Shown: in pieces, positions 14,400 through 59,029 of the stretch
How the letters are laid out: the number at the start of each line of letters is the position of its first letter
How positions within the stretch are numbered: the stretch's first letter is position 1
From: a virus
Strand: one strand, 5' to 3'
IMG/VR virus record: IMGVR_UViG_3300030098_004740
Location: 1-64,000 of that record
Length of the DNA: 64,000 bases
Program-made: the position numbers and the translations under genes
Notes under the pieces: model-generated
Seen by the model: only the letters and a program-made list of their open reading frames with translations
Told to the model about the DNA's origin: nothing
The model's database searches: none

Positions 14400-14801
14400 A
14401 TGATGGAAGACTCATATGCCGAACTTGTTAGGAAATCGGAAAAATACAAAACCGATAAAACTAATAAGTACAAAGAGGTCTCGAAAGATAGGCTTCTTAA
14501 AATATCAAAAAAGAAGATACAAACCACGATGATTGGTGCATTAAGTACTATTGAAAAACATTTTGGTTTTTTATGGGGTCACGAAAGTGGTGAAGCGTTA
14601 ACTCCCGAACAGGAGCATGTGAAACAACTTTTTGATGAAGTAAGGTCGGAGATACTTGATAGGGGTAATAATCAAGCTCGCAATTTAGAAGCCGAGTTTA
14701 ATCATTACGAAATTAATTGGTTAAGATACCAAATTACATTACCTGTTAAAGATATCGCAACTATAAAGGAAGAAGAAAATGGCGAAGAGCAAGAGAATTA
14801 A
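14400..14801 (+). CDS. Hypothetical protein
   Basis: 133-aa ORF with RBS AAGGAGG. Confidence 0.6.
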   Translation: MMEDSYAELVRKSEKYKTDKTNKYKEVSKDRLLKISKKKIQTTMIGALSTIEKHFGFLWGHESGEALTPEQEHVKQLFDEVRSEILDRGNNQARNLEAEFNHYEINWLRYQITLPVKDIATIKEEENGEEQEN

Positions 14802-15729
14802 GATTTCATCTACGGACTTGAATGGCGAAGAAAAAGAAGTATACATTCAACTTCCAAGCGCAGAAGAAAATAAACAAGCACAGCTTGCATATAATAGAGC
14901 TTTTAAAGAAGCACTTCAATCAGGAGCAATCTTGAGACAAAAGCTTCAAAAAGTGATGAATGAGCAAGGGATATGGGATGACGACAAAGAAAAGCAATAC
15001 CAAGCTATTCTAGAAGAAATCAATGAAGGTGAAAAGACTCTTAGCAGAGGTGGTATATCACTGACTGAAGCTAGGAGCATAGCTCTCCAAATGAGAAGAA
15101 AACGAGTTGAGTTCAGATCATTAATTGCCGAAAGAAGTTCGATGGACAGCAATAGTGCTGAAGGTCAAGCTGACAATGAAAGATTTTCTCATCTTGTATA
15201 CATTTGTTTAAGAAACGCAAACGGTAAAAATCTTTTCAAAACAAAAGAAGATTACGAAGAAAATGCTAATCAGCCATATGTTGTAGAAGCTGCTGGACAA
15301 CTAGCAGAAAAACTTTATGGATTAGATCCTGATTACGACAGAAATCTTCCTGAAAATAAATTCCTAGAAGCATACAAATTTAGTGATGAAGCTACTAGAT
15401 TGATTAATAAAGATGGTCATCTAATTGACATTGATAAAGATGGCAATGAAAGGCTTATTGATGAAAATGGTAGATATATTGCTTATGACGACGAAGGTGA
15501 ATCCTACTTCATTGACAAAGATGGTGAAAAATTAAACGAAGCTGGAGATTACGAAACTGAGTTTACTCCATTTTTAGATGATGCGGGGAAACCTGTAGAA
15601 GTCCCTTCTGAAAAAGAAGAAGAAGAAGAAGAAACTGCTGAGGAAGAAGCTGTAGAGGCAGAAGAGTCTAAGCCTACTACAAAAAGGAGAACGACCAAAA
15701 GGTCAACTACGAAAGCTAAAACCGAATAG
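14779..15729 (+). CDS. Hypothetical protein (possible tail assembly chaperone) with DxDG repeats and acidic then basic tail
   Basis: Directly upstream of the TMP; DKDG/DENG/DDEG repeats; EEEEEETAEEE then KRRTTKR. Confidence 0.45.
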   Translation: MAKSKRIKISSTDLNGEEKEVYIQLPSAEENKQAQLAYNRAFKEALQSGAILRQKLQKVMNEQGIWDDDKEKQYQAILEEINEGEKTLSRGGISLTEARSIALQMRRKRVEFRSLIAERSSMDSNSAEGQADNERFSHLVYICLRNANGKNLFKTKEDYEENANQPYVVEAAGQLAEKLYGLDPDYDRNLPENKFLEAYKFSDEATRLINKDGHLIDIDKDGNERLIDENGRYIAYDDEGESYFIDKDGEKLNEAGDYETEFTPFLDDAGKPVEVPSEKEEEEEETAEEEAVEAEESKPTTKRRTTKRSTTKAKTE

Positions 15730-15798: not shown

Positions 15799-18700
15799 AT
15801 GGCTGGCAATTTCAACATAACAGCACAGATACACCTGCAAGCGCCTAACGCAAAACAGTTTTCTAGAAATTTGCAAAAACAATTGCAAAATCCTAACATC
15901 AAGGTAAATTTGCAAGGCGCGCCTAAAACCGTAAAGGATCTTAACAATGTAGTTAAAGCTACTAAAGACGTTGAGAAAGCTAGCAGAAGTGCTGGTAAGG
16001 GTGCTGACTATATGGGTCGTCAGCTTGGAAGTGCTTTCAAGCAAATCATGAAATACGACATCGCTCGTCGTGTTTTTTCTCTTTTTGCAAACTCTATTGA
16101 ACAAGGCGTGAGAGATGCTATTGCTTTTGAACGAGCTATGGTAAAAGTTGCTCAAGTCAGCGGAGCAAGCGCGAGAGAAATGAAGGCGTTGACAAAAGAA
16201 ATCACTAACGTTTCTAAACAATTTGGAGTCAGTTCTCAAACTTTAGCTAGAACAAGTTTGATTCTTAAACAAACAGGTCTCTCTATGAGAGACACTAAGG
16301 TAGCGATGGAGGCTTTAGCTAAAACAGAATTAGCTCCTACGTTTGATAACATTGCTGATACAGCTGAAATGGCTGTTGCCGCGATGAGGCAGTTTGGATT
16401 GGAAGCTAGCAAACTTGAAGGTCTATTAGGTAAGATCAATACTGTCGCCGGAAACTTTGCTGTTGAGTCTTCTGATATTGGTGTCGCTATTAGGCGTACT
16501 GGTGGCGCGTTTAAAGCTGCCGGTGGTGAAATAGAAGAACTCATAGCCCTATTTACGTCTGTTCGTGCTACTACTCGTGAAACTGCTGAGACTATTGCTA
16601 CTGGTTTTAGAACTATTTTTACCAGACTGCAACGGCCAACAACTATTAAATTCTTGCGGCAATTTGGAATTGAACTTACAGACCTTGACGGTAAGTTTGT
16701 CGGCCCTTACAAAGCAGTCGAAAGACTTCATGGAGCATTAAAAAACCTAGACCCTCAAGACCTAAGATATTCAATGATCGTTGAACAACTTGGTGGGTTC
16801 CGTCAAGTCTCTAAGGTCATCCCGTTAATACAACAATTTGGCACTGCTCAAGCTGCGTTAAATGCACAACAAGCTGAAAGCGGAAGCTTAGCATCAGATG
16901 CTGCTAAAGCACAAGCGACTCTCGCTGTTCAAATGCAGAAACTAACTGAACAGGTAAAAGAACTGTTTCGTGAAATAGTTGGATCTGACTCTTTCCAAAT
17001 GATGGCAAAAGGAGCATTTGCTCTTGCTGAAGGCATTATCAAAGTAGGGAAGGCTCTTGCTCCAGTCATACCACTAATAACAGCCATGGCCGGTATGAAG
17101 ATGGCTGGCTGGGCTATGGGAAGTATGAAGATGTTTGGAGGCCGTGGACTAAACCAATCTCTTGGTACTATGGGAGGCACAGGCGGTCCGGGCTTTTACA
17201 ATCGTGGTGGTCGTGTACGTAGATTTAGTAGAGGTGGCTGGGTTCCGGGATCTGGTAATGGTGATACTGTACCTGCATTACTAGAGCCGGGAGAATTCGT
17301 ATTACGTAAATCTGCTGCTCAGGCTTTTGGCCCACAACTGGCTTCTGTTAATAGATATGGCAATGGCACTCGTGGTTCTTCAGGTGTAGACCCTGATGGT
17401 ATGTCAGCTTCTTCGTCTCCAGTATTATCAAGAGCTTTATTCCAAGGCGTACATGATGGTGATAGTTACCGAATACATGGAATACCTTCACAACAGAAAT
17501 GGAATACAACCACTAGACTTGACGGAGGGGTAGATGCTTATGAAATAAGAAATATGTCTTCTTCTGGTCCAGTGTGGGGTCCGAGAGAGAAGCAGTTGGG
17601 AGATTTAGCCAAGGCGATGGCAGAGAGTCACGCCTCAAAAATTAAAAAAGGTCAAGACATCATAGGAATGTTTGGGAATGTAGACCCAAAGAAGAAAGAA
17701 AAATATGGAAGACCTTTGATGACAGACCCTACCTTGGCCGATTCTTTGCTACAGGCTGGTCTTGGAGAAACTGACAAAGCTACAGGCACTCTAGAACAAA
17801 GAGTCATGAAATATGCTCAAGGAAGAACTAGAGCAGGAATAAATTCTGGTCCCGCTGGAAGTCTTTATCAACAATGGGTAGCTGAAGAAAGACAAAAACT
17901 TGAACAAGAAAACAAAATGGCTTCTGGAGGTTTGGTTCCTTCCCTTCTAACCCCCGGAGAATTCGTAGTTAACAAGAAGTCAGCTCAAAGATTTGGTTAT
18001 GGCAAGCTATCTAAGATGAATAGATATGCTGGCGGTGGAGCTGTTCGTAGATACGCTAATGGTACTGGTGGCGCTGGCGTTCTTCCTATGGGTATGGGCG
18101 GCGGAGGAATGTTCGGAGGAATGATGATGCAGCTGGGCATGATGGAAGGCATGTTCGGCAAAGTAGGTAAAGCTGGACTTGGAGCTTTTAATGGATTAAC
18201 CAACGTTGCTGCTGGAGCAACAATGGCCTATGCAAAATTTTCTATGGTAACCCAAAGTGTTGGCGCTGCTGCACAAATGTTTGGCCTTCAAAGCGAAGCT
18301 GTTACAGCCTTCATTGATAGACTCTCTATGGTTGGTGGAGTTATAAGTTCGCTTTCTTCTGTTGCTCAAAATCCAGCAACTCAAGCTGCATTTAGCCATG
18401 CTATTGACTGGGCTGTGAATGGTTTGATGCTCTTTGGCGGCAAGCTAAAAAACTTAGGAAAAGCCATGGGAGGAAAAATCGGCACCGCAGTTAGCAGTGC
18501 TGGTGGCAGGGTAAGTGGTTCGGCAGCACATGTTGCTAAGGGCGGACGCCATGCTAAAGAAATGTATCAAGGAATATTCCAAAGAGGCCAAACAAAAGCA
18601 TTTCGGGACAAGGTACTCAAAAGGCAAGAACATTACAAAGGCGTCGCAGCAAGTAAAACCAAAGCTGCTGGCCATGCAACAAGAAACATGGGAGAGTTGG

Positions 18701-21700
18701 GTCAAAAACTTTCTGCATCACAGGCTCAAGGCGCAAAAATAGATGCTGATATTCTAAAAAATAAACAAAGTATATTAAAAAGCACAGATGACATAGCTAA
18801 GGCAGAAAAAAGTTATACCGCTTTAGCTAATGCAAAAGCAAGAAATGAAGCCACAAGAATAGCTGCAAATAGGCGAGTTTCTGAGATAGGAGAAGGTTTC
18901 CCTAAGCTATTGAAAAAAGAAAAACATGCTTATGAAACTGGATTAAAAATACAAGAAAAACTTAATGCAGCGAGAACGCGCCTCAGTGAAAGTGGAGCTA
19001 AGTTTGCCGAGGGTCAAGCTGACTTTAAAGCTGGTAAATACATAAAAGATGGTGGAACTGCCGGTGAGTCCTCATTGAAAAGATCTGGCAAAGGCAAAAT
19101 GGAGTATTGGGGACGAAAAGCGGCTCTTGATCAAGCAGAAATTAAAAAGCTTGAGGAAGCGATGGCGGCTAATGCTAAGAGGCAAGCATCGTATACTAAG
19201 AGAATTGGCGATGCTGAAGCCACAGTAAACAAGTTGACAAATACACAACGCAGCATGATAAATAAAAATGCTGCACTAGATGGTGCGCTTGATTCTCAAA
19301 TGGCTGCTAGAAATGCGGCATCTAATACTTTAAATGCTCAACAAAAAGCTGCGAAAGAGCTTGCTGAAGAGTCAAGTAGAGCTGCTGCACAAAGCGCCAA
19401 GTATGCTGACAAAATGGATGGAGCAGCAAAAGCTGCTGCCAGTCTAGGCGACGACGCTGCAAAAGCTGGAACAAAAGCAGCCAAGCTTGGTAAAATAGCT
19501 ACAAAAAGTGGACAAATATTAGCAAAAGGTAGTAGAGCTATAGCAACCATGGGGATTTCCCTAGTTGTTGAAGAGACTATTGCTGCGGTTGGAAGATCTA
19601 TGACGGACGTTGCTATGACGCAGATCAAAGATGCTGGCGGTAGGATGTCAGAAGAAGATGCAGCAGTCGCAGAAGAAGATGCAGCTAGAGGTGGCTTGGT
19701 AAGCGGAGCAGCTACTGGTGCTGGTATTGGTTTTGCCATAGGTGCGCTTACAGGACCACTAGCTCCTATACTAGCTCCAGTATTTGGCGCAGTTGGAGCT
19801 GTAGTTGGTGGATTATGGGGTTGGTTTGCCGCTGCTGAAGAAGCTAGAGAAGCTATCGAACGTGCTAACTTTGATAGAGCATCAGCAGATATGACAGACG
19901 CCATGAAAAAATTTGGTGAAGGAACAGCAACTGCGTCCTTTGCAGTAGAGCAAATAGCAGAAATGCAGAGAGTTGAACAAGGAATCAAAGACTATGGTGT
20001 TAGTTTAGATGAAGTTTATGGTAGCCGAATTGAACAAAGAAAAAATGCTTCCACTATACTCAGCGCACAAGCTCAAAGCGCAATGTCTGAACAAGACTTT
20101 AAAAATGATCCTGCTATTAAAAGGCTTCAAGAATTAGGTCTAGTCACCCAAAAACAAGTCGATGAAGGCTTAAAAGTTGTTGAAGCAAACATGAAAGCCA
20201 GAGCAGCATTAGAAGCTGAATTAGAAGCTAGAAAAGCTTCAAATAGAGAGCTTAGAAAAGTAGCTGGTATTGTAGGCGCAATGGAAGAAGCATCTAATAG
20301 GCTTTCCACATTTGGCGCTTCAATAGAAAACATTGCAACTCCGGGAAGTGGAGGAATAGGAAAAACTGCTGATCTGTTCAAAAATGCAGGATCCAGTAAA
20401 CAAGGTACTGCAAACTTTAACAGTGCTATAGATATGTTTTCAAACATTGCTGGTGGAAATACGCTAGAAGGCTTTGGTAAAAAAGCAAAAGACGCACAAT
20501 TTGTAAATGCAAATATAGAAGATATATTGACTAGATCTGGTATGTCTGGTGGATTAGACCCAGAAAATATGCAGTCAATTATAATGGATGATTTGAAAAG
20601 AACTGCTAAAGAAGAAGGTGCGGCTCTAGGACCTTACATGGAAAAAAGAATGAAAAATATGATAGACAGCATAAGTGAAGATGACTTAGCTGATCTAGAA
20701 AATAAAGCACCAGAAATAGCAGCAAAATTTAAAGAAGATCAAGATAGATTTTTAGCAGTATTTCAAAAAGGAGCAGAACTCCTAGATCAATATACATCAG
20801 AATTGGAAGCTGCTTATAATGCTCAATTAAAACTTGAGCAAGAATACGTTAAGAGACAGCAGTCTTTGATGAACGCTAGATTTTCTTCTGACGAAAAGTT
20901 TCGTCAAAATCTAAGCGCTAGTGCTTTTTCAGGCACAAGCAATGCTGACATTCAAGCAAACTTCTTAGCTAACCAACAAATGCTTGTTAGCGGATCTGGC
21001 GGGATTGGCGGAATGAGCGCTGCTAGGCAAGCCTCTCTTAACGCAGCTGGTGGTGTTGGGAATGTTAATGCGGTAGGTGCGACGTTCAAACAAATTAGTG
21101 AAGATCTCAGAGCAAACCAACAGCAATTGATAAGTCAAGGTTTAGACCCAGCAGCCTTGGAACAGACAGGAGCAGCTGGCGGCTTAGCTGACGAACAACA
21201 AAAACTTATAGAAAAGAACAAAGAGCTTAGGGGAGAGTACGAGGCAGCGAAACAGGTTCTTGAAAACTACGCAAACTCTCAAGAAAGACTGACTGCTCTT
21301 AATAGAGAATTAGAACAAGCCCAACAAAAACGCAAGTCTCTTAAAGATCTTGCTGTGCAAGCTAGGTATGGAACTGCCGAAGAAAAAGATCAAGCTGCTC
21401 GTTTGATTAACGCTATCACTATTGCCTCTCAGCAAGGCATTGATGCTGTAGCTCCAGAACTTCAAAGGCAGGTTGTTGGATACCTTCCACAACTTATGGG
21501 CGCTCAAGGTGAGTCCATAGTTAACCAAGGCATAAACGATGCCTTTGGTGGTGGTCAAGGGATAGCTGGAATTACAGAAGTGAGCGCAGAAGAAAGGCGA
21601 CTCGCTACGGAAATAAAAGCTATAGAAGACGCAGGTATAACCGCTGGAGAGCATCTCGCAGAAGAAGTTGGTGACAGAATTGGAGAAATGGCCGACAAAA

Positions 21701-23367
21701 TTGCTGAGCTTAATAAAAACTTTGTCATAGATTTAAGAACTCTGTTCTTAGAGGAAGAATCAAAACAAGCAAAAGCAGATCAAAGAACCGCAGAAGCAAA
21801 AATAGCAGGAGCTGACAAAACAAGAGAGAAATTAAAAGAGTTTGGAATAGAAGGTACTGTTGATGCACAGGGAAATCTTTCTTATAGCGAAGAAGATCAA
21901 GTCGCTCTCAACAATTTAAGAATGTTGGGTGATCTAGCTATGGAAATGGAAAAACAAGAAAAAGCCACCTCTGCTTTGGGAGGCGTTGATCTTAAAGCAG
22001 AACAGGCAAAACTAGAAGGTTCAGGCTGGGTTATGGATCATCTTGCTTCAGGGACAAGTTCTAATATCTACAAAGCTCTAGGCATTACAAAAGACGAGTT
22101 TCTAGCTGGCATGGGCGGAAATGTTGGTGGTGACAACTGGAATGTAGAAAACTACGACGATGCCGATATGGACGCCATGAAAGTCGTGATTGATAAAATG
22201 GGTGTTAAGTTCGCTGAAATGGGCGGCGATATTAACATGTTTGAATCAGAAGCGATGCGTTTGATTAAACATGCGGCAGAGAATGATCTAGAAGGCCAAG
22301 ACGTACTTCAACCTTTATTCCAAATGTTAGCTGACAGGCAGTCATCAGCTAAGATACAGGGCGATGCCAGAATGAAAGAGTTAGAAGGAAAAGTTTCTCC
22401 AGAAGTTCTTGAAAAGATGAAAAGCATGACTGCCGAAGAAAGAACAGAGTACGCAAGAAAAGCAGGAGTAGCGGCTGAGGTTGGAGATTTGGACACGTTT
22501 GCTAGTGAAAGAAATCAATCCTATAAAGACTTAGCAGATGCTAAAGAATCTTTGAAGACAGTCAAAGATAAGCAAACAAAACTAACGGATGAAGCAACTA
22601 AGAGAGGTAGTATCTTTACTCATGATATTTATCTAGAAAGAATACTTCTGAATATTCTTACGGTTCTTGAAGGCGAAGGAAGAAGTGTAGATTTGCTTCC
22701 TACCAACCTAAATCCTTTAGCGGCTGCTGGTGGTGGTGGTGGTGGTAAAGGAGCTGTTCCGGGCTTCATGAAGAAGTTTGGAGGCAGTAGCTTAACAGAC
22801 TTTGCTAACATGGGCGACGAAGAGAAGCAAAAAATGCTCTCCATGTTAAGTAAAGATAGCTCAATATCAAGCGCAATGAAAGCAGAAATCACAGGAGCAG
22901 CTGGTGGACTACCTTCAATGTTTGCTGCTGACAAAATGCTTTCAAGCCCATTGACTGATGGAAGTCTTGAGGGAATAGACATGGCTAGCACAATGAAAAA
23001 AGCTATAGACAGTTTAAGCGAAGGAACGGCGGCAGCAGCTGTGACCAAAGTAGCACAAGATGCTCTTGCTGAAATGGGCGTTAATGAAACCGCAGAGCTA
23101 TTCTCGAAACATATAGAAGAGTTTTCATCAGCTATGGGTAACCCATTAAGCATTGAAGTGGGCGGAAGTATAGAAGTTAATGTTAATATGAATGGGGCAG
23201 ACTTCTTGAAGAATGCAGAAGGTGCATTAGCAGAAATTGCAGGAAGTGAAGCCTCTAAAGCAATAAATAACTTTATTCAACAAATGAATAAGAGTAGTAA
23301 TGTAAAACCAAATCCTCAAGGCTGGCATCAGTCAGGCCAACCTAAACCTTTGACAGGAAACGGATAA
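15799..23367 (+). CDS. Tail tape measure protein (TP901-like N-terminal domain) with embedded SNase-like domain
   Basis: FERAMVKVAQVSG..INTVAGNFAVESSD..ETIATGFRTIFTRL TMP core; Ala/Gly/Lys-rich coiled coil; hydrophobic GxxxG segments; 2522 aa. Confidence 0.92.
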   Translation: MAGNFNITAQIHLQAPNAKQFSRNLQKQLQNPNIKVNLQGAPKTVKDLNNVVKATKDVEKASRSAGKGADYMGRQLGSAFKQIMKYDIARRVFSLFANSIEQGVRDAIAFERAMVKVAQVSGASAREMKALTKEITNVSKQFGVSSQTLARTSLILKQTGLSMRDTKVAMEALAKTELAPTFDNIADTAEMAVAAMRQFGLEASKLEGLLGKINTVAGNFAVESSDIGVAIRRTGGAFKAAGGEIEELIALFTSVRATTRETAETIATGFRTIFTRLQRPTTIKFLRQFGIELTDLDGKFVGPYKAVERLHGALKNLDPQDLRYSMIVEQLGGFRQVSKVIPLIQQFGTAQAALNAQQAESGSLASDAAKAQATLAVQMQKLTEQVKELFREIVGSDSFQMMAKGAFALAEGIIKVGKALAPVIPLITAMAGMKMAGWAMGSMKMFGGRGLNQSLGTMGGTGGPGFYNRGGRVRRFSRGGWVPGSGNGDTVPALLEPGEFVLRKSAAQAFGPQLASVNRYGNGTRGSSGVDPDGMSASSSPVLSRALFQGVHDGDSYRIHGIPSQQKWNTTTRLDGGVDAYEIRNMSSSGPVWGPREKQLGDLAKAMAESHASKIKKGQDIIGMFGNVDPKKKEKYGRPLMTDPTLADSLLQAGLGETDKATGTLEQRVMKYAQGRTRAGINSGPAGSLYQQWVAEERQKLEQENKMASGGLVPSLLTPGEFVVNKKSAQRFGYGKLSKMNRYAGGGAVRRYANGTGGAGVLPMGMGGGGMFGGMMMQLGMMEGMFGKVGKAGLGAFNGLTNVAAGATMAYAKFSMVTQSVGAAAQMFGLQSEAVTAFIDRLSMVGGVISSLSSVAQNPATQAAFSHAIDWAVNGLMLFGGKLKNLGKAMGGKIGTAVSSAGGRVSGSAAHVAKGGRHAKEMYQGIFQRGQTKAFRDKVLKRQEHYKGVAASKTKAAGHATRNMGELGQKLSASQAQGAKIDADILKNKQSILKSTDDIAKAEKSYTALANAKARNEATRIAANRRVSEIGEGFPKLLKKEKHAYETGLKIQEKLNAARTRLSESGAKFAEGQADFKAGKYIKDGGTAGESSLKRSGKGKMEYWGRKAALDQAEIKKLEEAMAANAKRQASYTKRIGDAEATVNKLTNTQRSMINKNAALDGALDSQMAARNAASNTLNAQQKAAKELAEESSRAAAQSAKYADKMDGAAKAAASLGDDAAKAGTKAAKLGKIATKSGQILAKGSRAIATMGISLVVEETIAAVGRSMTDVAMTQIKDAGGRMSEEDAAVAEEDAARGGLVSGAATGAGIGFAIGALTGPLAPILAPVFGAVGAVVGGLWGWFAAAEEAREAIERANFDRASADMTDAMKKFGEGTATASFAVEQIAEMQRVEQGIKDYGVSLDEVYGSRIEQRKNASTILSAQAQSAMSEQDFKNDPAIKRLQELGLVTQKQVDEGLKVVEANMKARAALEAELEARKASNRELRKVAGIVGAMEEASNRLSTFGASIENIATPGSGGIGKTADLFKNAGSSKQGTANFNSAIDMFSNIAGGNTLEGFGKKAKDAQFVNANIEDILTRSGMSGGLDPENMQSIIMDDLKRTAKEEGAALGPYMEKRMKNMIDSISEDDLADLENKAPEIAAKFKEDQDRFLAVFQKGAELLDQYTSELEAAYNAQLKLEQEYVKRQQSLMNARFSSDEKFRQNLSASAFSGTSNADIQANFLANQQMLVSGSGGIGGMSAARQASLNAAGGVGNVNAVGATFKQISEDLRANQQQLISQGLDPAALEQTGAAGGLADEQQKLIEKNKELRGEYEAAKQVLENYANSQERLTALNRELEQAQQKRKSLKDLAVQARYGTAEEKDQAARLINAITIASQQGIDAVAPELQRQVVGYLPQLMGAQGESIVNQGINDAFGGGQGIAGITEVSAEERRLATEIKAIEDAGITAGEHLAEEVGDRIGEMADKIAELNKNFVIDLRTLFLEEESKQAKADQRTAEAKIAGADKTREKLKEFGIEGTVDAQGNLSYSEEDQVALNNLRMLGDLAMEMEKQEKATSALGGVDLKAEQAKLEGSGWVMDHLASGTSSNIYKALGITKDEFLAGMGGNVGGDNWNVENYDDADMDAMKVVIDKMGVKFAEMGGDINMFESEAMRLIKHAAENDLEGQDVLQPLFQMLADRQSSAKIQGDARMKELEGKVSPEVLEKMKSMTAEERTEYARKAGVAAEVGDLDTFASERNQSYKDLADAKESLKTVKDKQTKLTDEATKRGSIFTHDIYLERILLNILTVLEGEGRSVDLLPTNLNPLAAAGGGGGGKGAVPGFMKKFGGSSLTDFANMGDEEKQKMLSMLSKDSSISSAMKAEITGAAGGLPSMFAADKMLSSPLTDGSLEGIDMASTMKKAIDSLSEGTAAAAVTKVAQDALAEMGVNETAELFSKHIEEFSSAMGNPLSIEVGGSIEVNVNMNGADFLKNAEGALAEIAGSEASKAINNFIQQMNKSSNVKPNPQGWHQSGQPKPLTGNG
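17431..17775 (+). other. Staphylococcal nuclease (thermonuclease)-like domain within the TMP
   Basis: VHDGDSYRI..TRLDGGVDAYE..GDLAK..EKYGRPL..LLQAGLG. Confidence 0.75.
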
Positions 23368-26259: not shown

Positions 26260-28538
26260 TGCCTGTTTCATTTACTAACGCAACTGACGCTGATCCTCAG
26301 TTTCTTACACCAGCCCCTTTTATTAATATAAACAAAGATTTTGATAAACAGGGTGATGGAGAAATATTAGGAGCGAGATATAGTATAACCCTAACTGGAA
26401 AAATGATAGCTGATAGAGGCTCTCCTATTGGTATATCTGCCACAACTGCTAATGAGGGTAAGTTTTTAACTACTGCTGCTGACGCTTTGCAACAATTATC
26501 TAGTGGAGATCCTATACCCGACACTCGCTGGTACGAATCATTACAGATAAAACAAAAAGCTTTAAGTAATTTAATTAGCAAGCTACATGAAGGTGCTTAT
26601 CTTGAGGTTACAAGCCCCGGAGATGTAGGTGGAGGTTTTAAAGCCTTTGTCAAATTTGAAAGCTTAGACTTACCCGGACATGCTCCCGGTCAACCCTACT
26701 TGTCAGATTATACTATCAATTTAACTGCTGATTATCTCATAGGCCCAGATGGTAACATAGCTGAAGATGATTTTGAGAATCAAGGATTATGGCTTGTTTC
26801 TTCTGCTAGTGAAAATTGGGACATATCAGAAATAGACAAAAAAGTTTACGATTGGCAAAATGCAAGAAGTAGTGGAGCTGAAGCGCTTTACAAACCTTTG
26901 AGTAATAGAACTCTTTATCAGTTAACTAGAACTGTTAATGCCACTGGTAAGTCTAAGTTTATAAGAAATAATACAAAAGCTGATGGTCTTACTACAAACG
27001 ATCTTGGAGGAACTAATGATCCATCAAGCGACACTAGAAAGTTTAACCAAAAATATGCACCAAATGGAAAAGCTTGGCAACAAGCTAGAGGTTTTGTTTA
27101 TGACGTAATCAAGTATGGTGACGACTTCATTACTGGAAAAGACGGAACTGCTTATAACGCTACAGAAGGTGATGACCCTGCTTGTTATGACAGAGTGGGA
27201 AATCGTCTCTATAATGCTGGAGGGGAAGGTCGCGTTCCTGAAACATCTGCCCATACCTCTGGAACATGCGCTGAAGCTGGAGGTATTTGGAGAACAAAAC
27301 AAAAACCCGTAAAGCCCACTGGCAATTCGTCAAGTGCTGTAGATGCTGATGATCCACATCTGTTTGGAATGAATCTTCCAAACCCCATTACTCATAGTGC
27401 TGATCATCAGTATGTTGGTTTTGATTATAAAAGAACACAATCTGTTGATGTCAGAGGTGGTACTTTTTCTGTTACTGAAACTTGGATTTTAGCACCTGCT
27501 GATTCTCAAGCTACTGAGTCTATATCGTTCGACTTTGCAGAAGATGAGCAAGGTGTTGTTTCTTGTACAGTAAATGGAACTATCGAAGGTCTTTATAGAA
27601 CTCAGGGTAGAGACAGTTCAGTAACAGACCCTCCTCCATTAGGAATGAATTACAGCGTTGGTACAATTAGCGGAACGTATAATGGTCCAGAAGGTTCTGA
27701 CAATAGCAAACTAATAGCGGCTGAAGTTAGATATAATTCTATACAAGCTTTAATGTATCAAACTGTATACAACGAAATGTCTAGAATGATAGACCTTTCA
27801 GGTTTAAGTGTAAATCCACAACCAGTTTCAAAGAGTGTTGCCAAACAGCCAGATACTGGCATTATTACTTACAGTATGACTTTTAATACAAGGACTATAA
27901 ATTTTATACCCTTTGTAAAGAATGAAGATATTAGTCTTAATGATACGTATCCGGGTTATGTTGCTGCACAACATCAAGTATTAGGAAGACGTACTGGTCC
28001 AGTACTACAGTCTATAGGAACTCAAACAGAGTGGAGAAGAGACTTGACTATAAGTTGTACTGTTGATACTCATAGGACTCATTTGTGCGTAGATAGTCAA
28101 GGTGAAGTTCACCCAATAACAGATCAAGCAGCATGTGGTAATACTCCTGATCCATATTCAGGATATTTGCAATGGATACCAAATCCAAATTCAATTGTAA
28201 ACTTTGCTGGAAGCAACAGATATATGTCGCAAACTAGACCTTCTGCTGGTATAGACACTTATGGTACTAATTTCCCCGCTGGATTAAATGGTTCTCAAAG
28301 AGCCGCTATAGTAACACTAATCAACTCCTTTAATCCGGGAAACATGGGACTCTTTGGAGTCAAAAAATATTTTACAGAAGCACCAACAGAAAGTTGGAAT
28401 CCAAAGACTGGACAATGGTCTTATAGCGTAAGTTGGGTTTATGAAATGAAAGACCCATACGCTTTCCCAACGACAGATTACATGAATGGTGCATTCAATG
28501 ACAACCTTGCTGGCCCTTATCCCGGAATGATGATCTAA
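26259..28538 (+). CDS. Putative tail-tip/distal tail protein
   Basis: Downstream of the TMP; LTPAP..YSITLTG, GTFSVTETW, ESWNPKTG.WSYSVSW beta-rich patterns. Confidence 0.5.
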   Translation: MPVSFTNATDADPQFLTPAPFININKDFDKQGDGEILGARYSITLTGKMIADRGSPIGISATTANEGKFLTTAADALQQLSSGDPIPDTRWYESLQIKQKALSNLISKLHEGAYLEVTSPGDVGGGFKAFVKFESLDLPGHAPGQPYLSDYTINLTADYLIGPDGNIAEDDFENQGLWLVSSASENWDISEIDKKVYDWQNARSSGAEALYKPLSNRTLYQLTRTVNATGKSKFIRNNTKADGLTTNDLGGTNDPSSDTRKFNQKYAPNGKAWQQARGFVYDVIKYGDDFITGKDGTAYNATEGDDPACYDRVGNRLYNAGGEGRVPETSAHTSGTCAEAGGIWRTKQKPVKPTGNSSSAVDADDPHLFGMNLPNPITHSADHQYVGFDYKRTQSVDVRGGTFSVTETWILAPADSQATESISFDFAEDEQGVVSCTVNGTIEGLYRTQGRDSSVTDPPPLGMNYSVGTISGTYNGPEGSDNSKLIAAEVRYNSIQALMYQTVYNEMSRMIDLSGLSVNPQPVSKSVAKQPDTGIITYSMTFNTRTINFIPFVKNEDISLNDTYPGYVAAQHQVLGRRTGPVLQSIGTQTEWRRDLTISCTVDTHRTHLCVDSQGEVHPITDQAACGNTPDPYSGYLQWIPNPNSIVNFAGSNRYMSQTRPSAGIDTYGTNFPAGLNGSQRAAIVTLINSFNPGNMGLFGVKKYFTEAPTESWNPKTGQWSYSVSWVYEMKDPYAFPTTDYMNGAFNDNLAGPYPGMMI

Positions 28539-31500
28539 TGCCTTTTACTGGACTAATGTCAGATGAAGTCTTTCAACAATCCTTTATGGGTTTGTCGATT
28601 ATGGACTTTACAGTTAATGCTGGACTAAACAGTTCACAAAGTACCTTGTCACTCAACTTAGTTGCAGATGATGGGTATTTCGATGCGTATCATACTTTAG
28701 ACACACTACCAATGACTTATCCCACAGTTAGTTGGGGAGGATCGTCAGGCCCTTTTGGTACTGGATTTGGCGGTGGATTCTTTATGGGAACAACCACTGT
28801 AAATGTTGGTATTAGAGACGCTGTAACGGAAGGCTACCACCCTTGGGATCCTAATGCTTTTCCCGCAACATTAATACAAAAATATGGCGGAGTGACTGGA
28901 GTTAAACAAAATTATGCTATGAATGGAGATGTAGCATGGCTTCCTCCTCCGGGATCTCCTGTATATTTTAAATATTATGGAACTGGAAATTTAAATAATG
29001 CATGTGTTAAGGATAGAAATTGCACACCCGTATTTCACTTTAATGGAATATTAGGAAACTATGAAAAAAGTTTTAGCACTGGTGGGTTGACTTATTCTGT
29101 AACATTATCAGACCCTAGAAAGATTTTAGAAAATACTCTTGTTATATTAGATGGAGAAACTGGAAGAGTAGCCGCCGCAGATGAGCATTACCTAAAAGGC
29201 ACAGCAAACGTAACCAATAAAAGAAAATACGAACATGGTTGGAATGGCTACTATAACATTATAAATGTCTTTGGTTATTACGAATCGCATGGCTTTAATA
29301 AATCCCGAAAAAATGACCAAGGAATAGCTTGGTTTGAGGCCAAAAATGGGAAGCAATTTACAAACCACTATGGTATTAATCATCATTTTGGAGTTTTGCC
29401 TGCTATAGATTTTATAGCTAGTGGAACTAATGATGAATATATTAAGAAACTTGAACCCTATGGAGGTCCCGCATATTACGGTGTAGATGATAGAAACCTT
29501 GCAACATATGCTCCTTTTTCAGAGCAGTTAAACGGAGATGGTGTCTACAGATATGCAATAGATCTTTCAGCCCTTTATGATTTGAGCAAGTACTATAATC
29601 CTAATCCTCCAGCAAAAGGTGTTATAGATGACAACTTTAGAATAAATGGAGAAAATATATCTCTACTCCAGTTGATAGAAAAGGTTTGCGAAGCTGCTGG
29701 CGCTGATTTTATGGTAGAAATGTACGCTCCAAGGTTAGGAGAACCATTCTACGCAACGCATAAAGACTATGCTGGGATAATAAGAATAATTCCTATCCCT
29801 AGAAATATTGAAGTAGAACTAGGCGTATTAGAAAAAGCTATTGATCTTTCGCAACAGACTCCATCCGTAGGGCCTTTCGTAGATTCAGAACAGCACTCAA
29901 TCTTAATAGACTCTAGTGTTGGATATGAATTCACAGATCCTGTACAAGGCAAAATCCTATTTGGAGCGCCAAGAACAAGAGTAGTTGGAGTTACCCCTCT
30001 CGGTGATAGAAAAACTAGAGATGAATTATTTTATAATGCTACAACAAAAAAGTATATAGACGGAAATCCAACTGAAGGTACGGATGATATCCTTCGAGAG
30101 TATATGCCTTCTATTGAACTAGATGGTGTCACTTTACATACGCAAGCTTTGCCTGCGGATTCATTTCAAGATAGATCTGAATATGGTTGGAATCCTGAAA
30201 CAGATCTTTTAAGAGAAGGTGGCAAAGATGTCTTGCCAGACTTTGAACAAAACCTTCCTATGGTTTCAAATGATGATTTCTTACCCTATCATTTTGCTGA
30301 AGATGTATCTGGTAGAAACTATGATGAAGCTGATCCGTACCAATTTGGAAGAGCTAACTCAAAATTTTATGAAACCGGCTCACAGTGTTTCATAACTCCT
30401 CCTGCTACAGAGGGGTCACCTTTTGTAATAAGCAATTACTGTACTGAAGAGTACGATGCAACTCAGGCTGCTGGCGGTAGAGCTGCTGAACCTCATGGAA
30501 ATCCAAAACAAATATGCACAAATGAAAGCACATGCACAGCCGCTGATTATTGTGATGGTGAATGGAAGACAATAGAGGATGCGCAGGGATGTACAGACGC
30601 TGGCGTTATGTATTTCTTTTTTTATGGTGATCCTAGTCTTTCTTCTCAGAATGTTGGTCAATATAAAAAGGTAGATTCAGGACTTGGTTCTGGATATTTA
30701 GACATGTTTCCATGTTGGGGATTCCACAAGACAGAGTATAACTCTGCTAGCTCTTTGTTAAAAGATGATATCAATAAGTCAATCAAAGGACAGCCAATTA
30801 AGGGAATGTTCTGGGATGATGATCCATATAGAGATTTTCATCCCATTGATGGAATATTTGGTGTATTTGATTGGATTAATCCGGGTCTTGGAAAATGTAG
30901 GTCAGTAGAAGACTTCGTAGATCCTGCCACTGGTCAGACAAATCCGAATACTGCAAAAGGCAAAATATTACCTGCTCTTGAAAATATGCCACTTCTTTGT
31001 GAGTGTGATTATATGACAGCCGCTATTGATGATGACTGTTATACATTTAGAAACAGTATAGGCGTAAAAGCTAGAGGTAAGTTTGAACCAGCTTGTGAAC
31101 CACGTAAAAGATGTGAAGCTCAACCTTCAGGAGATGAAGTAACTGATTTACACGCTGGAACAGCAGGGGTGGAAAATAACTTACATAAAATAAAATTCAG
31201 TTGTGAAAATGCTTGCTTCTTAGCAGACGCAAACGGCAATCCTACTGGAAACGCTGTAGTTGCGTACTATACAGAAGATGTAGGAACTAAAACAAAAGGA
31301 CAAGCAGCTAACGTAAATGATAATGAATGGATGACCAACCCTCCGGGAACAAAAGGTTCTAAGATTAAATTGATATCAGATAAAGAAGATTGTGAAATTG
31401 AATCTGTATCTGGAACACAAACTAAAAGAGTTGTAGGAAACATAAAGTCTGATGGATCTCTAACAACGGGAGCCGACCAAAATAAATTTATCGCAGAAGG

Positions 31501-33997
31501 GGGTCTATATAGCAAAGAGTGCATAGGAATAAGTCACAAATATCCTCATAGTACTCATTGTGAAGCAATAGCTGGTTTCACTGATCCGGCTACGGGTACT
31601 AAATATCGTGTAGGAGACTGGCTTCCATCTACTACAGCTGATGGCTGTAGAGACAGATTTGGCATAATGTTTGTCAAATGGGTAAACGCTATGACACAGT
31701 TTCCAACAAACCCAATTGATGATAAATTCTATGGACAAACTATTCCTGTAGACAAGATACCTGCACCGGGATATGTAAATACTAGATTTAGATATACAGG
31801 AGTCTGCAAGACTCATTTTAGAAATCAGCCAGTCACTAACCTTCTTACTCAAAAAAATATAACTGATAAGTTTGATTGTCTTAATGGGACTGGAGGATTA
31901 CATTATTTTGACGAAGACGATGTAGATAGTATTCCTGTAATGGCTAAGTCTGCAACTATTCCTATTGATTTAGGATCTATAGGATATGACCAAGGTCCTC
32001 TTGGATCGAACAATATTCCCGGAGGTGCTACAAATTGGTATTACGCTACTATTACTGAGTTAAGACACGCTGCTGTAAGCAAAGACTCTTGGACTGCTTA
32101 TCTGAGAAACTTGGGACAAAAACTTCCTTGTTCCATGTGGGCTATAAATCCAGTTCCACAAAATGCTTGGTCTGACTTCTGCAAGAAAGCAGATGAAGTA
32201 ATGTTCAAAGGAGGCACTAGCAAAGCCCATTTAGCAATTGCAAATAACCTAAATTATTTTGCATCTGGAGGTGCTTCAGGTTCGCCAACAATAAATAGCG
32301 ATGTCATAAACCATGCTGGTAATCCAAGCGAAGCTAATGCAAAGTCTGCTACTGGACATCCCTGCGGAGACGCAGAAAGAAATGCTCTTAGTTTGGGTGA
32401 AAGAACTCAAATGGAAGTAGACATTGCTTATCAAAAAGTTCAAGAGGCTGCTACTCAATTTTATGGAAGACGGTACTTAGTGCCATTACCCTTCAATCCA
32501 CCAACTTCACACACTTGTAGCAATCTTGTATACAAAAATCGAGCAGACTGCACAGACAATGGGTATGATTGGGGTCCTCATGGAATGCTAAGCGAATGGT
32601 TCCAAAAGATGGGCGTTGGACAATGCTCAGATGGAGTAAGCGCTGACAAGTTTACTTGTGAAGTAACTAATAATTCTTTTTGGATAGAACCTATTAAACA
32701 CATAAACAAATGGGATATAAATACTTCAGGATGGCCGGGAGGTTCTATAGATTACCAATGGGACGAAACAAAGAACACAGGCTACCCACAGAATATAAAT
32801 TTCTGGACTGAAGACGGGAATTTGGAACCATTTGTTGTATTTCCTTCACACGAAAGAAAAAGATTCAGCGCAGATGCTTCAAGATTAGATTTTAGAAATT
32901 ATGACCCAGAAACAATTCATGAATCAAAGTCTAATGTCGGCCCTATTGCTGGTTGGGGAACTAAAGTCTTTGTTAAAGCCAATGTAGATCCAGAAACTCA
33001 CTGGATACCAGAAAGAGCTGCGTGGGAAATACAAAACGAAAAACAGTTTGCAATGTTTAGAGATGGAGATCCAGATGGCGGAACCGATCGACAAAAAAGA
33101 CTAAACCAGCCAGCGAATCATTTAGCGATTGGAACGCTTGATAATTCAAAATTCCTAACAGAAAGAGAAGTCTATGTAAGAGAAGTAGACCAAAACTCTG
33201 CTGATTATTTTAAGGAAACAGCGGCTTATAAACCTTATGCATTAATCACATTACCAAATCAAGTTCTTTATGGAGATATGGACCAAACAACAAAATTCCA
33301 TCCTGATATTGGAGAAGGTAAAGATATGTGCATACCTTTGATAAAAGCTAAAAACTCTAACGCTTTAATGAGCGCTTGGTTGCAAGGCATGGACAGAGGA
33401 GGAATTGTTGGTCAGCAATTAGTGGCTATGGCAGGCAACTTAAGAAATGCTCCAGTTGTGTCTCCCGATATGGGGAGAGGCTCTTTACAAGCTGCTGCTT
33501 ATAAGCCTTGGCACGCAGCTATACCTCAACAAAGTAAGCATTTTAAATGGGGTCCTTGGGCTTTAGGAACGGGTTTTGGAAAAACTGACTATCAAGTAGA
33601 CACAAGCATACAACCATCAGCATTTGGTGGAGAAAAGGCCATGGCTAATTATGCTATGTCTGGCATAAAAACTACACTTCAAAATGTAACCCCTTATATT
33701 GAGACTGGAAGCGTGACATTAGCTGGCTTACCAGCACACGCGTTTGCAACTCAAATAGTTTTGCCAATTAATGGAGTAAATTTGTTAGGTCCATTTATAA
33801 CAGATATATCTGTAGCAATGGGTGCTAGTGGACTTACTACTACATACAACTTTACAACACAAGAAAAATTTGCTGATATCGACTCTATCAACAGACAAAG
33901 GATCAGAAAAAATCAAGAGGATATGTTGAAGATGCTTAAACATACAGAAGAGCAAATTGCAAAAACAAAAAGAGACATATCAAAGTATATTAAATAA
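28538..33997 (+). CDS. Large tail hub/tip protein with Cys-rich insertions
   Basis: N-terminal SFMGLSI.DF..STLSLNLV, YSVTLSDPR; C-terminal ETGSVTLAG..ITDISV..GLTTTYNF hub-like; many Cys modules. Confidence 0.55.
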   Translation: MPFTGLMSDEVFQQSFMGLSIMDFTVNAGLNSSQSTLSLNLVADDGYFDAYHTLDTLPMTYPTVSWGGSSGPFGTGFGGGFFMGTTTVNVGIRDAVTEGYHPWDPNAFPATLIQKYGGVTGVKQNYAMNGDVAWLPPPGSPVYFKYYGTGNLNNACVKDRNCTPVFHFNGILGNYEKSFSTGGLTYSVTLSDPRKILENTLVILDGETGRVAAADEHYLKGTANVTNKRKYEHGWNGYYNIINVFGYYESHGFNKSRKNDQGIAWFEAKNGKQFTNHYGINHHFGVLPAIDFIASGTNDEYIKKLEPYGGPAYYGVDDRNLATYAPFSEQLNGDGVYRYAIDLSALYDLSKYYNPNPPAKGVIDDNFRINGENISLLQLIEKVCEAAGADFMVEMYAPRLGEPFYATHKDYAGIIRIIPIPRNIEVELGVLEKAIDLSQQTPSVGPFVDSEQHSILIDSSVGYEFTDPVQGKILFGAPRTRVVGVTPLGDRKTRDELFYNATTKKYIDGNPTEGTDDILREYMPSIELDGVTLHTQALPADSFQDRSEYGWNPETDLLREGGKDVLPDFEQNLPMVSNDDFLPYHFAEDVSGRNYDEADPYQFGRANSKFYETGSQCFITPPATEGSPFVISNYCTEEYDATQAAGGRAAEPHGNPKQICTNESTCTAADYCDGEWKTIEDAQGCTDAGVMYFFFYGDPSLSSQNVGQYKKVDSGLGSGYLDMFPCWGFHKTEYNSASSLLKDDINKSIKGQPIKGMFWDDDPYRDFHPIDGIFGVFDWINPGLGKCRSVEDFVDPATGQTNPNTAKGKILPALENMPLLCECDYMTAAIDDDCYTFRNSIGVKARGKFEPACEPRKRCEAQPSGDEVTDLHAGTAGVENNLHKIKFSCENACFLADANGNPTGNAVVAYYTEDVGTKTKGQAANVNDNEWMTNPPGTKGSKIKLISDKEDCEIESVSGTQTKRVVGNIKSDGSLTTGADQNKFIAEGGLYSKECIGISHKYPHSTHCEAIAGFTDPATGTKYRVGDWLPSTTADGCRDRFGIMFVKWVNAMTQFPTNPIDDKFYGQTIPVDKIPAPGYVNTRFRYTGVCKTHFRNQPVTNLLTQKNITDKFDCLNGTGGLHYFDEDDVDSIPVMAKSATIPIDLGSIGYDQGPLGSNNIPGGATNWYYATITELRHAAVSKDSWTAYLRNLGQKLPCSMWAINPVPQNAWSDFCKKADEVMFKGGTSKAHLAIANNLNYFASGGASGSPTINSDVINHAGNPSEANAKSATGHPCGDAERNALSLGERTQMEVDIAYQKVQEAATQFYGRRYLVPLPFNPPTSHTCSNLVYKNRADCTDNGYDWGPHGMLSEWFQKMGVGQCSDGVSADKFTCEVTNNSFWIEPIKHINKWDINTSGWPGGSIDYQWDETKNTGYPQNINFWTEDGNLEPFVVFPSHERKRFSADASRLDFRNYDPETIHESKSNVGPIAGWGTKVFVKANVDPETHWIPERAAWEIQNEKQFAMFRDGDPDGGTDRQKRLNQPANHLAIGTLDNSKFLTEREVYVREVDQNSADYFKETAAYKPYALITLPNQVLYGDMDQTTKFHPDIGEGKDMCIPLIKAKNSNALMSAWLQGMDRGGIVGQQLVAMAGNLRNAPVVSPDMGRGSLQAAAYKPWHAAIPQQSKHFKWGPWALGTGFGKTDYQVDTSIQPSAFGGEKAMANYAMSGIKTTLQNVTPYIETGSVTLAGLPAHAFATQIVLPINGVNLLGPFITDISVAMGASGLTTTYNFTTQEKFADIDSINRQRIRKNQEDMLKMLKHTEEQIAKTKRDISKYIK

Positions 33998-34014: not shown

Positions 34015-35805
34015 ATGGCCACAGATAAACAACCTGTAAACGACCAAAGGTCTGAAACAGATAAAAATGACTATAGTCACTTGATGCTAACTAGTGCTAG
34101 TTATCCAGAGCAAGACATACCTATTAGAGATGCCGCTAATAATGTTTTGTTTTGGGATAATCATCCTGACTATGCGGGAAAGCCTATAAACGCTTTTAAT
34201 GCATCTACTACTACAGCCACTGGACCAGTTGCATCTTTTATGGATCAGTTTCCAAGCGATAAGGCTTGGCATAATGCTGGAGGTATGTCTATTGATGGCT
34301 TGTTTGTTCCTTATGCCACAAACTTTGCCGTAGTTAGCACAGGTGGGGAAAGAAAAAATCTGAACAAAGCTCCAGACACTTCTTCAATGCCTACTTTTGA
34401 AAGGCCATATAGTGTTGAAAAAGGAGGCGAACCATCAGACCAAGTTGATTTTGTAAACTACAATACAAAACTAGGGGCTGCTGCACCATCTCCCGCCACA
34501 ATAGACTCCGCTTCTCTTAATCCATTTGCTTCCGGCCACTATATACAAATGGTTAACAAGGAAAGTAAACAGGTTAGTCCCAACACAGACGTTTCAGGGT
34601 ATTCTAAGCATTCTTCTCCTTTAGGAAAACCCAATGTTAAATCTACTGAAACAGAAAGACCAATAGGTCTTAGAGGTCCGATTGTTATTGCTGGATGGGG
34701 TTATGATGCTATTACTTCGCATCCAGTTCCTAACTTAAGATACGACTCTGATTATAGACATAATGAACCAAAGAGCGCGAATTATGGTAGGCAAAGGTAT
34801 GCTCCTGAGACCATGAAGGCTAGGACTGCTAGCGGTATGCAGCAAGACCATAAGCATTTTACTCCTTTTCATATGAGAAGACCTGACAAATGGAAAGCTG
34901 GCCCTGTTGACTTAAGATGGGATCACAATAGAAAAGTTTGGGTTGGTGGAAAGCACAATGGAATATTTTTATCAAAAGCTACAAAGTGTATACTTCCAAA
35001 ATCTGGTATAGATGGTAATAACTCTTTTAACTTTGGCGTTGGTGGTAATATTAATGCTCCCGGAAGATTATATAGAAACCCATGCCCAACGCATAACTGT
35101 AATTATCATTCATACTTTCCAACAAGTATCTATTATCCCGATATAGAAATATATGACCCAGAAGATCACAACTGGTGTGGTAGATGTAGAACTATAGGGA
35201 CACAAACAGCATGTGGAGACTTCAAGGATGGATGTTCTCCTTTTTATGATGCAATTATTTTAAGAGCTGTAGATGAACAAGTAGGGAAAAATAACGAGCT
35301 TATTGAATGTACTGACAAGTTTAGAAAAGTGCAAGGCGGTACTCCTCAAGCAAGAAGAGCTGGAAACCCTTGTCATGGATGGGGTTCTAGTAAATTTGGA
35401 ACTGGTGAGTTTATTAATGAAAAAATAGGAGATGACGAAGTTTGGACAGAATATGCTAAAGCTTTGTTGTATCAAAAAATATTCGTAGAAAACCCTCTAG
35501 GTCAAGGGTTAATGGTAGGGGATGCATTTTTTAGTTATGATACTGGTAGGAGAATAGTGTATGAATATGAAAGAACAGATACCGCAGCTTGTGGAAAAGG
35601 TGTTGGTACAAAAGTAAAAGTAAAGGAATCTATTCCTGTACATGTAATTTTACAGGGCGAATTTTATGGAATGGAAGTAATTTCACACGCAGGTTGTGAT
35701 AGAGGTGAAATGGGTTCTTGTTCTAGAAAATTCTTTGCTCAAGGCTTTGCAACTGGAGAAGATTGTGGGCCAGATGATGACTATCCACAAACAGCAGGAT
35801 CATAA
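34015..35805 (+). CDS. Putative tail protein with Cys-rich C-terminus
   Basis: LRGPIVIAGWGYD..WKAGPVDLRWD..VW; operon context. Confidence 0.5.
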   Translation: MATDKQPVNDQRSETDKNDYSHLMLTSASYPEQDIPIRDAANNVLFWDNHPDYAGKPINAFNASTTTATGPVASFMDQFPSDKAWHNAGGMSIDGLFVPYATNFAVVSTGGERKNLNKAPDTSSMPTFERPYSVEKGGEPSDQVDFVNYNTKLGAAAPSPATIDSASLNPFASGHYIQMVNKESKQVSPNTDVSGYSKHSSPLGKPNVKSTETERPIGLRGPIVIAGWGYDAITSHPVPNLRYDSDYRHNEPKSANYGRQRYAPETMKARTASGMQQDHKHFTPFHMRRPDKWKAGPVDLRWDHNRKVWVGGKHNGIFLSKATKCILPKSGIDGNNSFNFGVGGNINAPGRLYRNPCPTHNCNYHSYFPTSIYYPDIEIYDPEDHNWCGRCRTIGTQTACGDFKDGCSPFYDAIILRAVDEQVGKNNELIECTDKFRKVQGGTPQARRAGNPCHGWGSSKFGTGEFINEKIGDDEVWTEYAKALLYQKIFVENPLGQGLMVGDAFFSYDTGRRIVYEYERTDTAACGKGVGTKVKVKESIPVHVILQGEFYGMEVISHAGCDRGEMGSCSRKFFAQGFATGEDCGPDDDYPQTAGS

Positions 35806-48542: not shown

Positions 48543-48872
48543 TTACTCTTCCTTCTGGGTTTTGGAATTCCATTTAACCCATCCATTATCAGGTAGCCAA
48601 TTACCTTCTTTATCCTTGCGTTTGGGAAATAGTCTTCCACCCTTTTTCATGACTCCAAATGCTAGCTTAGCACCGCAATCAGAGCATCTAAGTTCATAGT
48701 ATAGGTTGTCGTCTACATTCCTAACTTGAAACTTGATGTTGTCGCTTCCGCATTTTCCGCAAGTTGTTTCTTCAAAAATCTCTTGAAAGTTAGATAACTT
48801 TTGAAATAGTTCAATCTGTGTTTCAAATTCAATTTCAACACTGATTTTCCCGCTAGTGTAAGTTGCTTTCAT
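48543..48872 (-). CDS. Zn-ribbon protein
   Basis: CGKC..CSDC; coupled to the annealase gene. Confidence 0.65.
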   Translation of the reverse strand: MKATYTSGKISVEIEFETQIELFQKLSNFQEIFEETTCGKCGSDNIKFQVRNVDDNLYYELRCSDCGAKLAFGVMKKGGRLFPKRKDKEGNWLPDNGWVKWNSKTQKEE

Positions 48873-50580: not shown

Positions 50581-51049
50581 TTGTTATCCTCACTATTTCT
50601 TTTATGTTAGTATTTTCTATTATATAGTCAACTTTTCTATTTGAATAGTTTTCTATTGCTTTTGCGTGGTCTTTACTTCTGGCTATAAGCTTCGTTTCTT
50701 TAGGTATAAAAGCTTGTATTGTTTTTTCATATTCTCGTCCATGATTTCTAATCCACTCAAGGTCCCAAATATAAAAATACTTTGATTTTGGTGCAAAGCA
50801 CTTATTCATTGAAAGCGAAGTAGAAACATTTGTTGAGATAAGATTTCCACTAAAGTTCCATATTTCGCTCATAGACATAGTAGCGAAGTTAGGCTCGATA
50901 ATATTTGCTGAAGAATTTTCAAAAAATATTAAAAAGTCTTCTTTTCCTCCATCGTCAATGTAATCATTAATTCCTTTTATTAATGAAAACGATAATTCGC
51001 TAGCTGTAGTATCAGTTACTACAAAACCTATCTGATTATTTTTTTGCAT
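50573..51049 (-). CDS. Hypothetical protein (possible GT-B-like fragment)
   Basis: KYFYIWDLEW..LIARS; end of the glycan cluster. Confidence 0.45.
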   Translation of the reverse strand: MQKNNQIGFVVTDTTASELSFSLIKGINDYIDDGGKEDFLIFFENSSANIIEPNFATMSMSEIWNFSGNLISTNVSTSLSMNKCFAPKSKYFYIWDLEWIRNHGREYEKTIQAFIPKETKLIARSKDHAKAIENYSNRKVDYIIENTNIKEIVRITNE

Positions 51050-53285: not shown

Positions 53286-53295
53286 ATTAAAACCT

Positions 53296-56314: not shown

Positions 56315-56316
56315 TA

Positions 56317-59028: not shown

Positions 59029-59029
59029 C

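Follow-up and report, generated by a model that had tools for sequence, protein, structure and literature searches.

A staphylococcal nuclease-family domain within the tape measure protein of an uncultivated phage

Tape measure proteins (TMPs), a few stretched-out copies of which occupy the phage tail tube, are ejected before the DNA and can bear envelope-acting enzymes; they are known to bring cell-wall-cutting enzymes (peptidoglycan hydrolases) into the envelope. The locus described here raises the question of whether a TMP can carry a nuclease instead and, if so, what such a nuclease would do during infection. The window, that is, the whole stretch of 64,000 nucleotides that we analysed, comes from an IMG/VR virus record of 92.6 kb, estimated to be 61% complete. 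A first-pass annotation of this stretch had described a staphylococcal nuclease (SNase)-like domain inside the TMP.

The tape measure protein and its nuclease-family domain

The TMP gene and the segments of the protein that matter for the following analysis are located as follows:

15799..23367 (+ strand): tail TMP, 2522 aa, a single unbroken ORF according to the ORF list and translation
17014..17124 (+ strand): hydrophobic segment, aa 406-442, preceding the cargo region (Kyte-Doolittle, 19-residue window, peak 1.63)
17236..17358 (+ strand): cassette 1, aa 480-520, GWVPG...DTVPALLEPGEFVLRK...N-Y, nearly all positions invariant among 17 TMP relatives
17413..17832 (+ strand): SNase-family domain, aa 539-678, with an alignable core at aa 541-660 (17419-17778)
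17911..18048 (+ strand): cassette 2, aa 705-750, GGLVPSLLTPGEFVVNKK...MNRY, an invariant block across relatives
19690..19842 (+ strand): strongly hydrophobic Gly/Ala-rich segment, aa 1298-1348 (Kyte-Doolittle peak 1.99)

The product of 15799-23367 is the tail TMP of a long-tailed phage, as evidenced by its family domain, length, helical character and location within the tail block. Its N-terminal part matches the Pfam family PhageMin_Tail (PF10145) at aa 133-330 with a score of 99 bits (cut-off 33.2), hits to six tape measure families of PHROG fall within the first 450 residues (E-values down to 1e-26), and the N-terminal 500 aa are similar to the TMP YomI of SPbeta. The neighbouring genes include an upstream gene with tail-fibre similarity as well as LamG-like and J-like tail-tip genes downstream. 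Pfam searches detected no peptidoglycan hydrolase domain in the window TMP. The segment at aa 1298-1348 is a candidate for insertion into a membrane.

The sequence strings from which the SNase-like domain had been recognized (VHDGDSYRI, TRLDGGVDAYE, LGDLAKAMAE, KEKYGRPL and LLQAGLG) are found exactly in the translation of 17431-17775 (+ strand) and span aa 545-659 of the 2522-aa ORF. We set the limits of the domain wider, at aa 539-678, which adds a C-terminal helix aligning with helix 3 of SNase.

Searches with single sequences were largely uninformative. A Pfam SNase HMM search had been suggested as a check, and it failed to recover the domain: the model gave no hit at E <= 10 on the window sequence, including the whole TMP as well as its 115-aa and 167-aa stretches, so that the gathering score was not reached, and a scan of the phage genome with PF00565 produced no match. 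Two of the 17 related TMP domains reach an E-value of 0.002 with the same model. Querying the PDB with the single domain sequence using phmmer returned only noise, and the same sequence obtained just a weak endonuclease match among the PHROGs (E 0.17). A profile of the whole TMP yielded coiled-coil noise only when compared with the PDB, and a domain-only profile was required. We therefore relied on a domain-only alignment of 17 sequences (hereafter A3), the identity of which to the window domain ranges from 17 to 62%. The A3 profile matched S. aureus thermonuclease in the PDB with an E-value of 1.3e-9 and, when aligned by hhalign to 15 stand-alone SNases, gave a probability of 99.5% (E 9.3e-23); all 10 of the short proteins from this set that were scanned pass the Pfam SNase cut-off. 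In the hhalign alignment, the motifs DGDS, TRL, DAYE, KYGR and GLG of the TMP domain are paired with DGDT, RL, DTPE, KYGR and GLA of the SNases, respectively.

The fold was checked with a predicted model and a fold search, and an OB-type beta-barrel packed against three helices was found, as in SNase. The model is of moderate confidence (mean pLDDT 73.6) and renders barrel strands 4 and 5 in shortened or helical form, with pLDDT dropping to ~59 near model residues 110-120. Profile searching, profile-profile alignment, the match at the level of fold and six conserved active-site residues (see below) all bear out the SNase-like domain noted in the first-pass annotation. We are nearly certain that the domain is an SNase homologue: judging by its profile, predicted fold and active site, it is a divergent member of the SNase superfamily that falls below the single-sequence threshold of Pfam. 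The silence of the Pfam model on the single sequence is what could be taken to indicate a chance resemblance of motifs in the absence of an SNase domain, an explanation that is virtually impossible and is excluded by the PDB profile match, the homologues that pass the Pfam cut-off and the hhalign result.

The catalytic residues proposed for the domain could be placed in the alignments: D553 and D555 correspond to SNase D19 and D21, R573 to R35, D579 to D40, E582 to E43 and R638 to R87. They lie in four short segments:

17455..17463 (+ strand): D553-G554-D555, equivalent to SNase D19-G20-D21, invariant in alignments A1, A2 and A3
17515..17517 (+ strand): R573, equivalent to SNase R35, invariant, aligned in the PDB profile match and by hhalign
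17533..17544 (+ strand): D579-A-Y-E582, equivalent to SNase D40-T41-P42-E43, with D and E invariant
17701..17712 (+ strand): K635-Y636-G637-R638, equivalent to SNase K84-Y85-G86-R87, EKYGR being paired with DKYGR by hhalign

In SNase, D21 and D40 are Ca2+ ligands and E43 is the general base, with R35 and R87 binding the phosphate. The positions corresponding to the Ca2+ ligands, with D19 included (D553, D555 and D579), are invariant and aligned, and E582, R573 and R638 occupy those of the general base and the two phosphate-binding arginines. The full D-D-R-D-E-R set is present in 40 of the 49 matches to the domain in long, TMP-like proteins (800 residues or more); among the other nine, six are partial alignments, protein P0043 has K in place of R87, and P0079 (with three partial matches) has Q in place of E43. 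Across the region alignment of TMP relatives, DGDS, one Arg, D-A-x-E, a later Arg and one Leu are all invariant. Within the KYGR motif, the 17 close TMP relatives all share the R and almost all the G; the window protein has K635 and Y636 at the positions of the nucleotide-contacting K84 and Y85, and both positions vary among the relatives. The base-stacking residues Y113 and Y115 of SNase have no clear equivalents after GLG in the window protein, and some of the relatives contain Tyr there. Compared with canonical SNases, the TMP domain has a longer loop after E43 and four residues fewer after YGR in the hhalign alignment. We consider it probable that the domain is catalytically active.

Flanking cassettes, relatives and an alternative insert

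The SNase domain is located about one fifth along the TMP, between two copies of a conserved "VPxLLxPGEFV" cassette. Each copy comprises ~40 residues, with the core DTVPALLEPGEFVLRK in cassette 1 and LVPSLLTPGEFVVNKK in cassette 2. The cassette is also found in TMPs of cultured phages of Gordonia, Streptomyces, Nodularia, Shewanella and Nitrincola, and in a virion protein of the cyanophage (Synechococcus phage) S-SCSM1 it precedes a glucosaminidase domain by ~50 residues. Judging from these sequence comparisons, the cassette is common in the TMPs of cultured actinophages and cyanophages and represents a widespread component of ejected tail proteins, located next to enzymatic cargo. A cassette site lies at L160:4001-4111.

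A comparison of residues 500-720 with a protein database retrieved 17 related TMPs with 30-90% identity over that stretch, and a metagenome scan with alignment A2 recovered 79 related TMP loci. The SNase insert is present between the cassettes in 16 of these 79 metagenomic TMPs and lacking from the remaining 63. In a search of 1.84 billion representative proteins with A3, 1701 proteins matched at E <= 1e-3. Many of the top ~30 matches are proteins of 880-5500 aa, in which the domain is positioned near residues 500-900 where the N-terminus is intact; the lower-ranked matches are mostly proteins of 110-270 aa. A freshwater-metagenome TMP carries two tandem SNase-type domains, each with DGD and D-x-x-E (L020:3151-3966). 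Furthermore, seven proteins of 4900-6400 aa (P0021, P0028, P0035, P0039, P0042, P0058 and P0097) contain an SNase-type domain near residues 500-800; if these giant proteins are TMPs, extremely long tails or fused proteins would be implied.

Searches of the viral contig collection and of the INPHARED phages with the window domain detected no relatives. We also used a more canonical TMP-borne domain, from locus L028, as a query; neither of the two domains matched inside the TMP of a cultured phage in INPHARED, and the sole match of the L028 domain was the stand-alone thermonuclease of Sulfurimonas phage SNW-1. Among bacterial genome contigs, 80 related loci were found, mostly on binned contigs or prophages of Burkholderiales and other Proteobacteria. 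Because none of these 80 loci carries the SNase insert, we assign no host to the phage.

To characterize what else occupies the stretch between the cassettes, we built a profile from 36 alternative inserts. This profile identified an insert unrelated to SNase between the PGEFV cassettes in 48 of the 79 related TMPs (E <= 1e-5), with 20 of the 48 matches lying outside the set used for building. The SNase domain and the alternative insert do not co-occur in any of the 79 loci. Carriers of the alternative insert include L006, L014, L024 (L024:3118-3678), L034 and L065. The insert displays an invariant Asp as well as a near-invariant Gly and Glu, with the consensus G-x-x-F-E … D-F … E-A-K, a motif series like that of PD-(D/E)xK nucleases. 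An AlphaFold2 model (pLDDT 75.9) places E93 within a helix, D117 immediately ahead of a strand and E126-x-K128 on the strand that follows, a predicted layout that fits the core of the restriction-endonuclease-like PD-(D/E)xK fold. Five of the six listed language-model neighbours carry families of the PD-(D/E)xK type (PDDEXK_14, Tox-REase-7, AHJR-like, Mrr_cat and Flu_PA), with a score of just 0.78. Pfam and PDB profile searches with the alternative insert were negative, stand-alone homologues were not found, Foldseek and VIA-wide gave no clear fold, and a second Atlas query came back empty. We treat the motif and the modelled layout as a lead: the alternative insert is possibly a PD-(D/E)xK nuclease.

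If so, the stretch between the cassettes might be an exchangeable bay for nucleases of unrelated folds in different lineages (SNase in 16 and a PD-(D/E)xK-like domain in 48 of the 79 loci), which would be injected with the genome. We propose this generalization tentatively and regard it as rather doubtful. Should it be true, pre-made nucleases would be widespread phage-delivered effectors that serve to take over the host or to destroy rival DNA where it enters. More generally, if the alternative insert is also a nuclease, the cassettes would flag a modular site for effectors, open to mining in metagenomic data and perhaps usable for other tail cargo.

Proposed role of the domain and competing explanations

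The most likely role of the SNase domain, and one that we favour with some reserve, is that of a nuclease effector delivered by the TMP. An effector role is favoured by the retention of the catalytic residues across TMPs with only ~20-30% identity, by the location of the domain in a cargo-like slot and by the possibility that relatives hold a second kind of nuclease in the same slot. The uses suggested for such delivery in the first-pass annotation, namely, attack on the host, anti-defence or exclusion of competitors, are plausible.

SNase refolds unaided and requires millimolar Ca2+. A TMP-borne domain with these properties would ride unfolded or extended in the tail tube, exit with the TMP during DNA ejection, and then refold and cut nucleic acid. 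Because of the requirement for millimolar Ca2+, it would show almost no activity in the cytoplasm, the site of TMP synthesis, and would be switched on in a Ca2+-rich setting (for example, periplasm, envelope or seawater). The high-Ca2+ dependence would thus offer a simple account of safe synthesis in the cytoplasm and activation outside of it. Possible substrates would be host DNA or RNA, the incoming DNA of a competitor, or cell-surface DNA. A non-specific nuclease entering alongside the phage DNA would endanger that genome, which weighs against a simple attack on the host chromosome, and we found no mechanism that would spare the phage genome from a co-entering nuclease of this kind. In lambda, T5 and TP901-1, the N-terminal part of the TMP is head-proximal and exits last. 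By analogy with these phages, the domain, being in the N-terminal quarter, would be the last to leave and, owing to this head-proximal position, may never reach the cytoplasm, a second point against a simple attack on the host chromosome.

The position of the domain is also what makes an alternative worth weighing, in which it acts on the phage's own DNA by holding or processing the end of the packaged genome that leads the way, whereby the DNA would be pulled in behind the departing TMP. Indeed, the domain lies at aa 539-678 of 2522, within the N-terminal quarter, occupies a similar position (roughly residues 500-900) in long relatives, and the SNase fold is an OB-type nucleic-acid-binding fold. 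However, mere binding needs neither the Ca2+ ligands nor E43, and yet all six residues are found in 40 of the 49 matches; the absence of the domain from 63 of the 79 related TMPs implies that it is not core to DNA delivery, and the tandem duplication in L020 suits cargo more than a fixed holder of the DNA end. We consider such an own-DNA role unlikely. Retention of the six residues bears as well on the notion of a folded spacer or a module with a structural function, in which SNase-like residues would serve stability or metal binding and cleavage has been lost. Many eukaryotic SN domains are non-catalytic, and the window domain does show shortened strands 4 and 5 relative to canonical SNases, the four-residue deletion after YGR, low model confidence in this region and no equivalents of Y113 and Y115. 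Nevertheless, non-catalytic SN domains typically lose the catalytic set, whereas here it is complete at identities of 17-62%, and a purely structural function seems quite improbable to us.

Finally, the insert could be a selfish or mobile nuclease cassette that spreads among TMP genes through recombination between the flanking repeats and brings little benefit to infection. Two similar cassettes flank the slot, the contents of which differ among related TMPs, and nuclease genes are reported to lie at the boundaries of genetic exchange between phages (bioRxiv 10.1101/2023.03.23.533998), which is in line with this scenario. Conversely, SNase is not sequence-specific, the insert is in frame, inspection of the cassette sequences by eye revealed nothing intein-like, and the domain is retained at the same site in TMPs down to ~30% identity, with its catalytic residues constrained. 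These features render a selfish element very unlikely, and the delivered effector remains our preferred explanation of the domain.

Precedents and other features of the window

Enzyme-bearing TMPs provide the closest architectural parallels among phages. YomI of SPbeta, which the window TMP resembles N-terminally, carries lytic transglycosylase/peptidase cargo, T5 pb2 has a peptidase, and the TMP of mycobacteriophage TM4 has an Rpf-like motif. As in these proteins, a TMP scaffold with a globular enzyme domain would be expelled at infection; unlike in them, the predicted cargo of the window TMP is a nuclease rather than a cell-wall hydrolase. S. aureus thermonuclease (micrococcal nuclease) and other stand-alone PF00565 proteins, including the small thermonucleases of phages, are secreted or stand-alone proteins of ~150 aa, whereas the domain described here forms an internal part of a virion protein of 2522 aa.

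Our literature searches turned up no phage TMP equipped with a nuclease domain, whether of the SNase or of another type. The nearest precedent is the TMP-related effector Tme, from the contractile injection system of Streptomyces davawensis, the nuclease of which is active in vitro (PMC11126660). Tme is likewise very long and TMP-like, bears a nuclease domain and is packed into a tube resembling a phage tail; however, its nuclease is C-terminal and EndA-like, with DRGH and H-N-N motifs, and belongs to a bacterial system (PMC11126660). The domain in the window TMP is internal, adopts a predicted SNase fold and belongs to a phage. The second case is the baseplate hub of the BtI1 phage-like element of Bacillus thuringiensis, for which an N-terminal SNase-related domain of unexplained role was noted in 2007 (PMC2147016). 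There, too, an SNase-type domain resides on a tail-tip or ejection protein, and relatives have cell-wall hydrolases in this place; the protein is, however, the hub of a myovirus-like element and not a TMP (PMC2147016).

A conserved nuclease with an intact active site in a TMP would add a new class of virion-delivered activity. The presence of the domain with all of its catalytic residues suggests that some phages may bring a ready-made nuclease into the cell envelope along with their DNA, which raises the questions of what the nuclease cuts, in which place, and by what means the phage protects its own DNA.

Several other features of the window accompany the TMP gene. Immediately upstream, two ORFs on the + strand, 14400-14801 and 14779-15729, overlap by 23 bases in an arrangement reminiscent of the tail assembly chaperone pair produced by frameshifting; both lack PHROG matches. 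The tail region also includes very large ORFs, one of 3760 aa (35805-47087, + strand) and another of 1819 aa (28538-33997, + strand), the latter with no Pfam match. Further downstream, the region 48872-62788 on the - strand contains three genes for NAD-dependent epimerases/dehydratases and at least four glycosyltransferase genes, a block that suggests a phage-encoded sugar pathway. One of these glycosyltransferases shows a weak match, below the cut-off of Pfam, to a GT4 'conflict systems' family.
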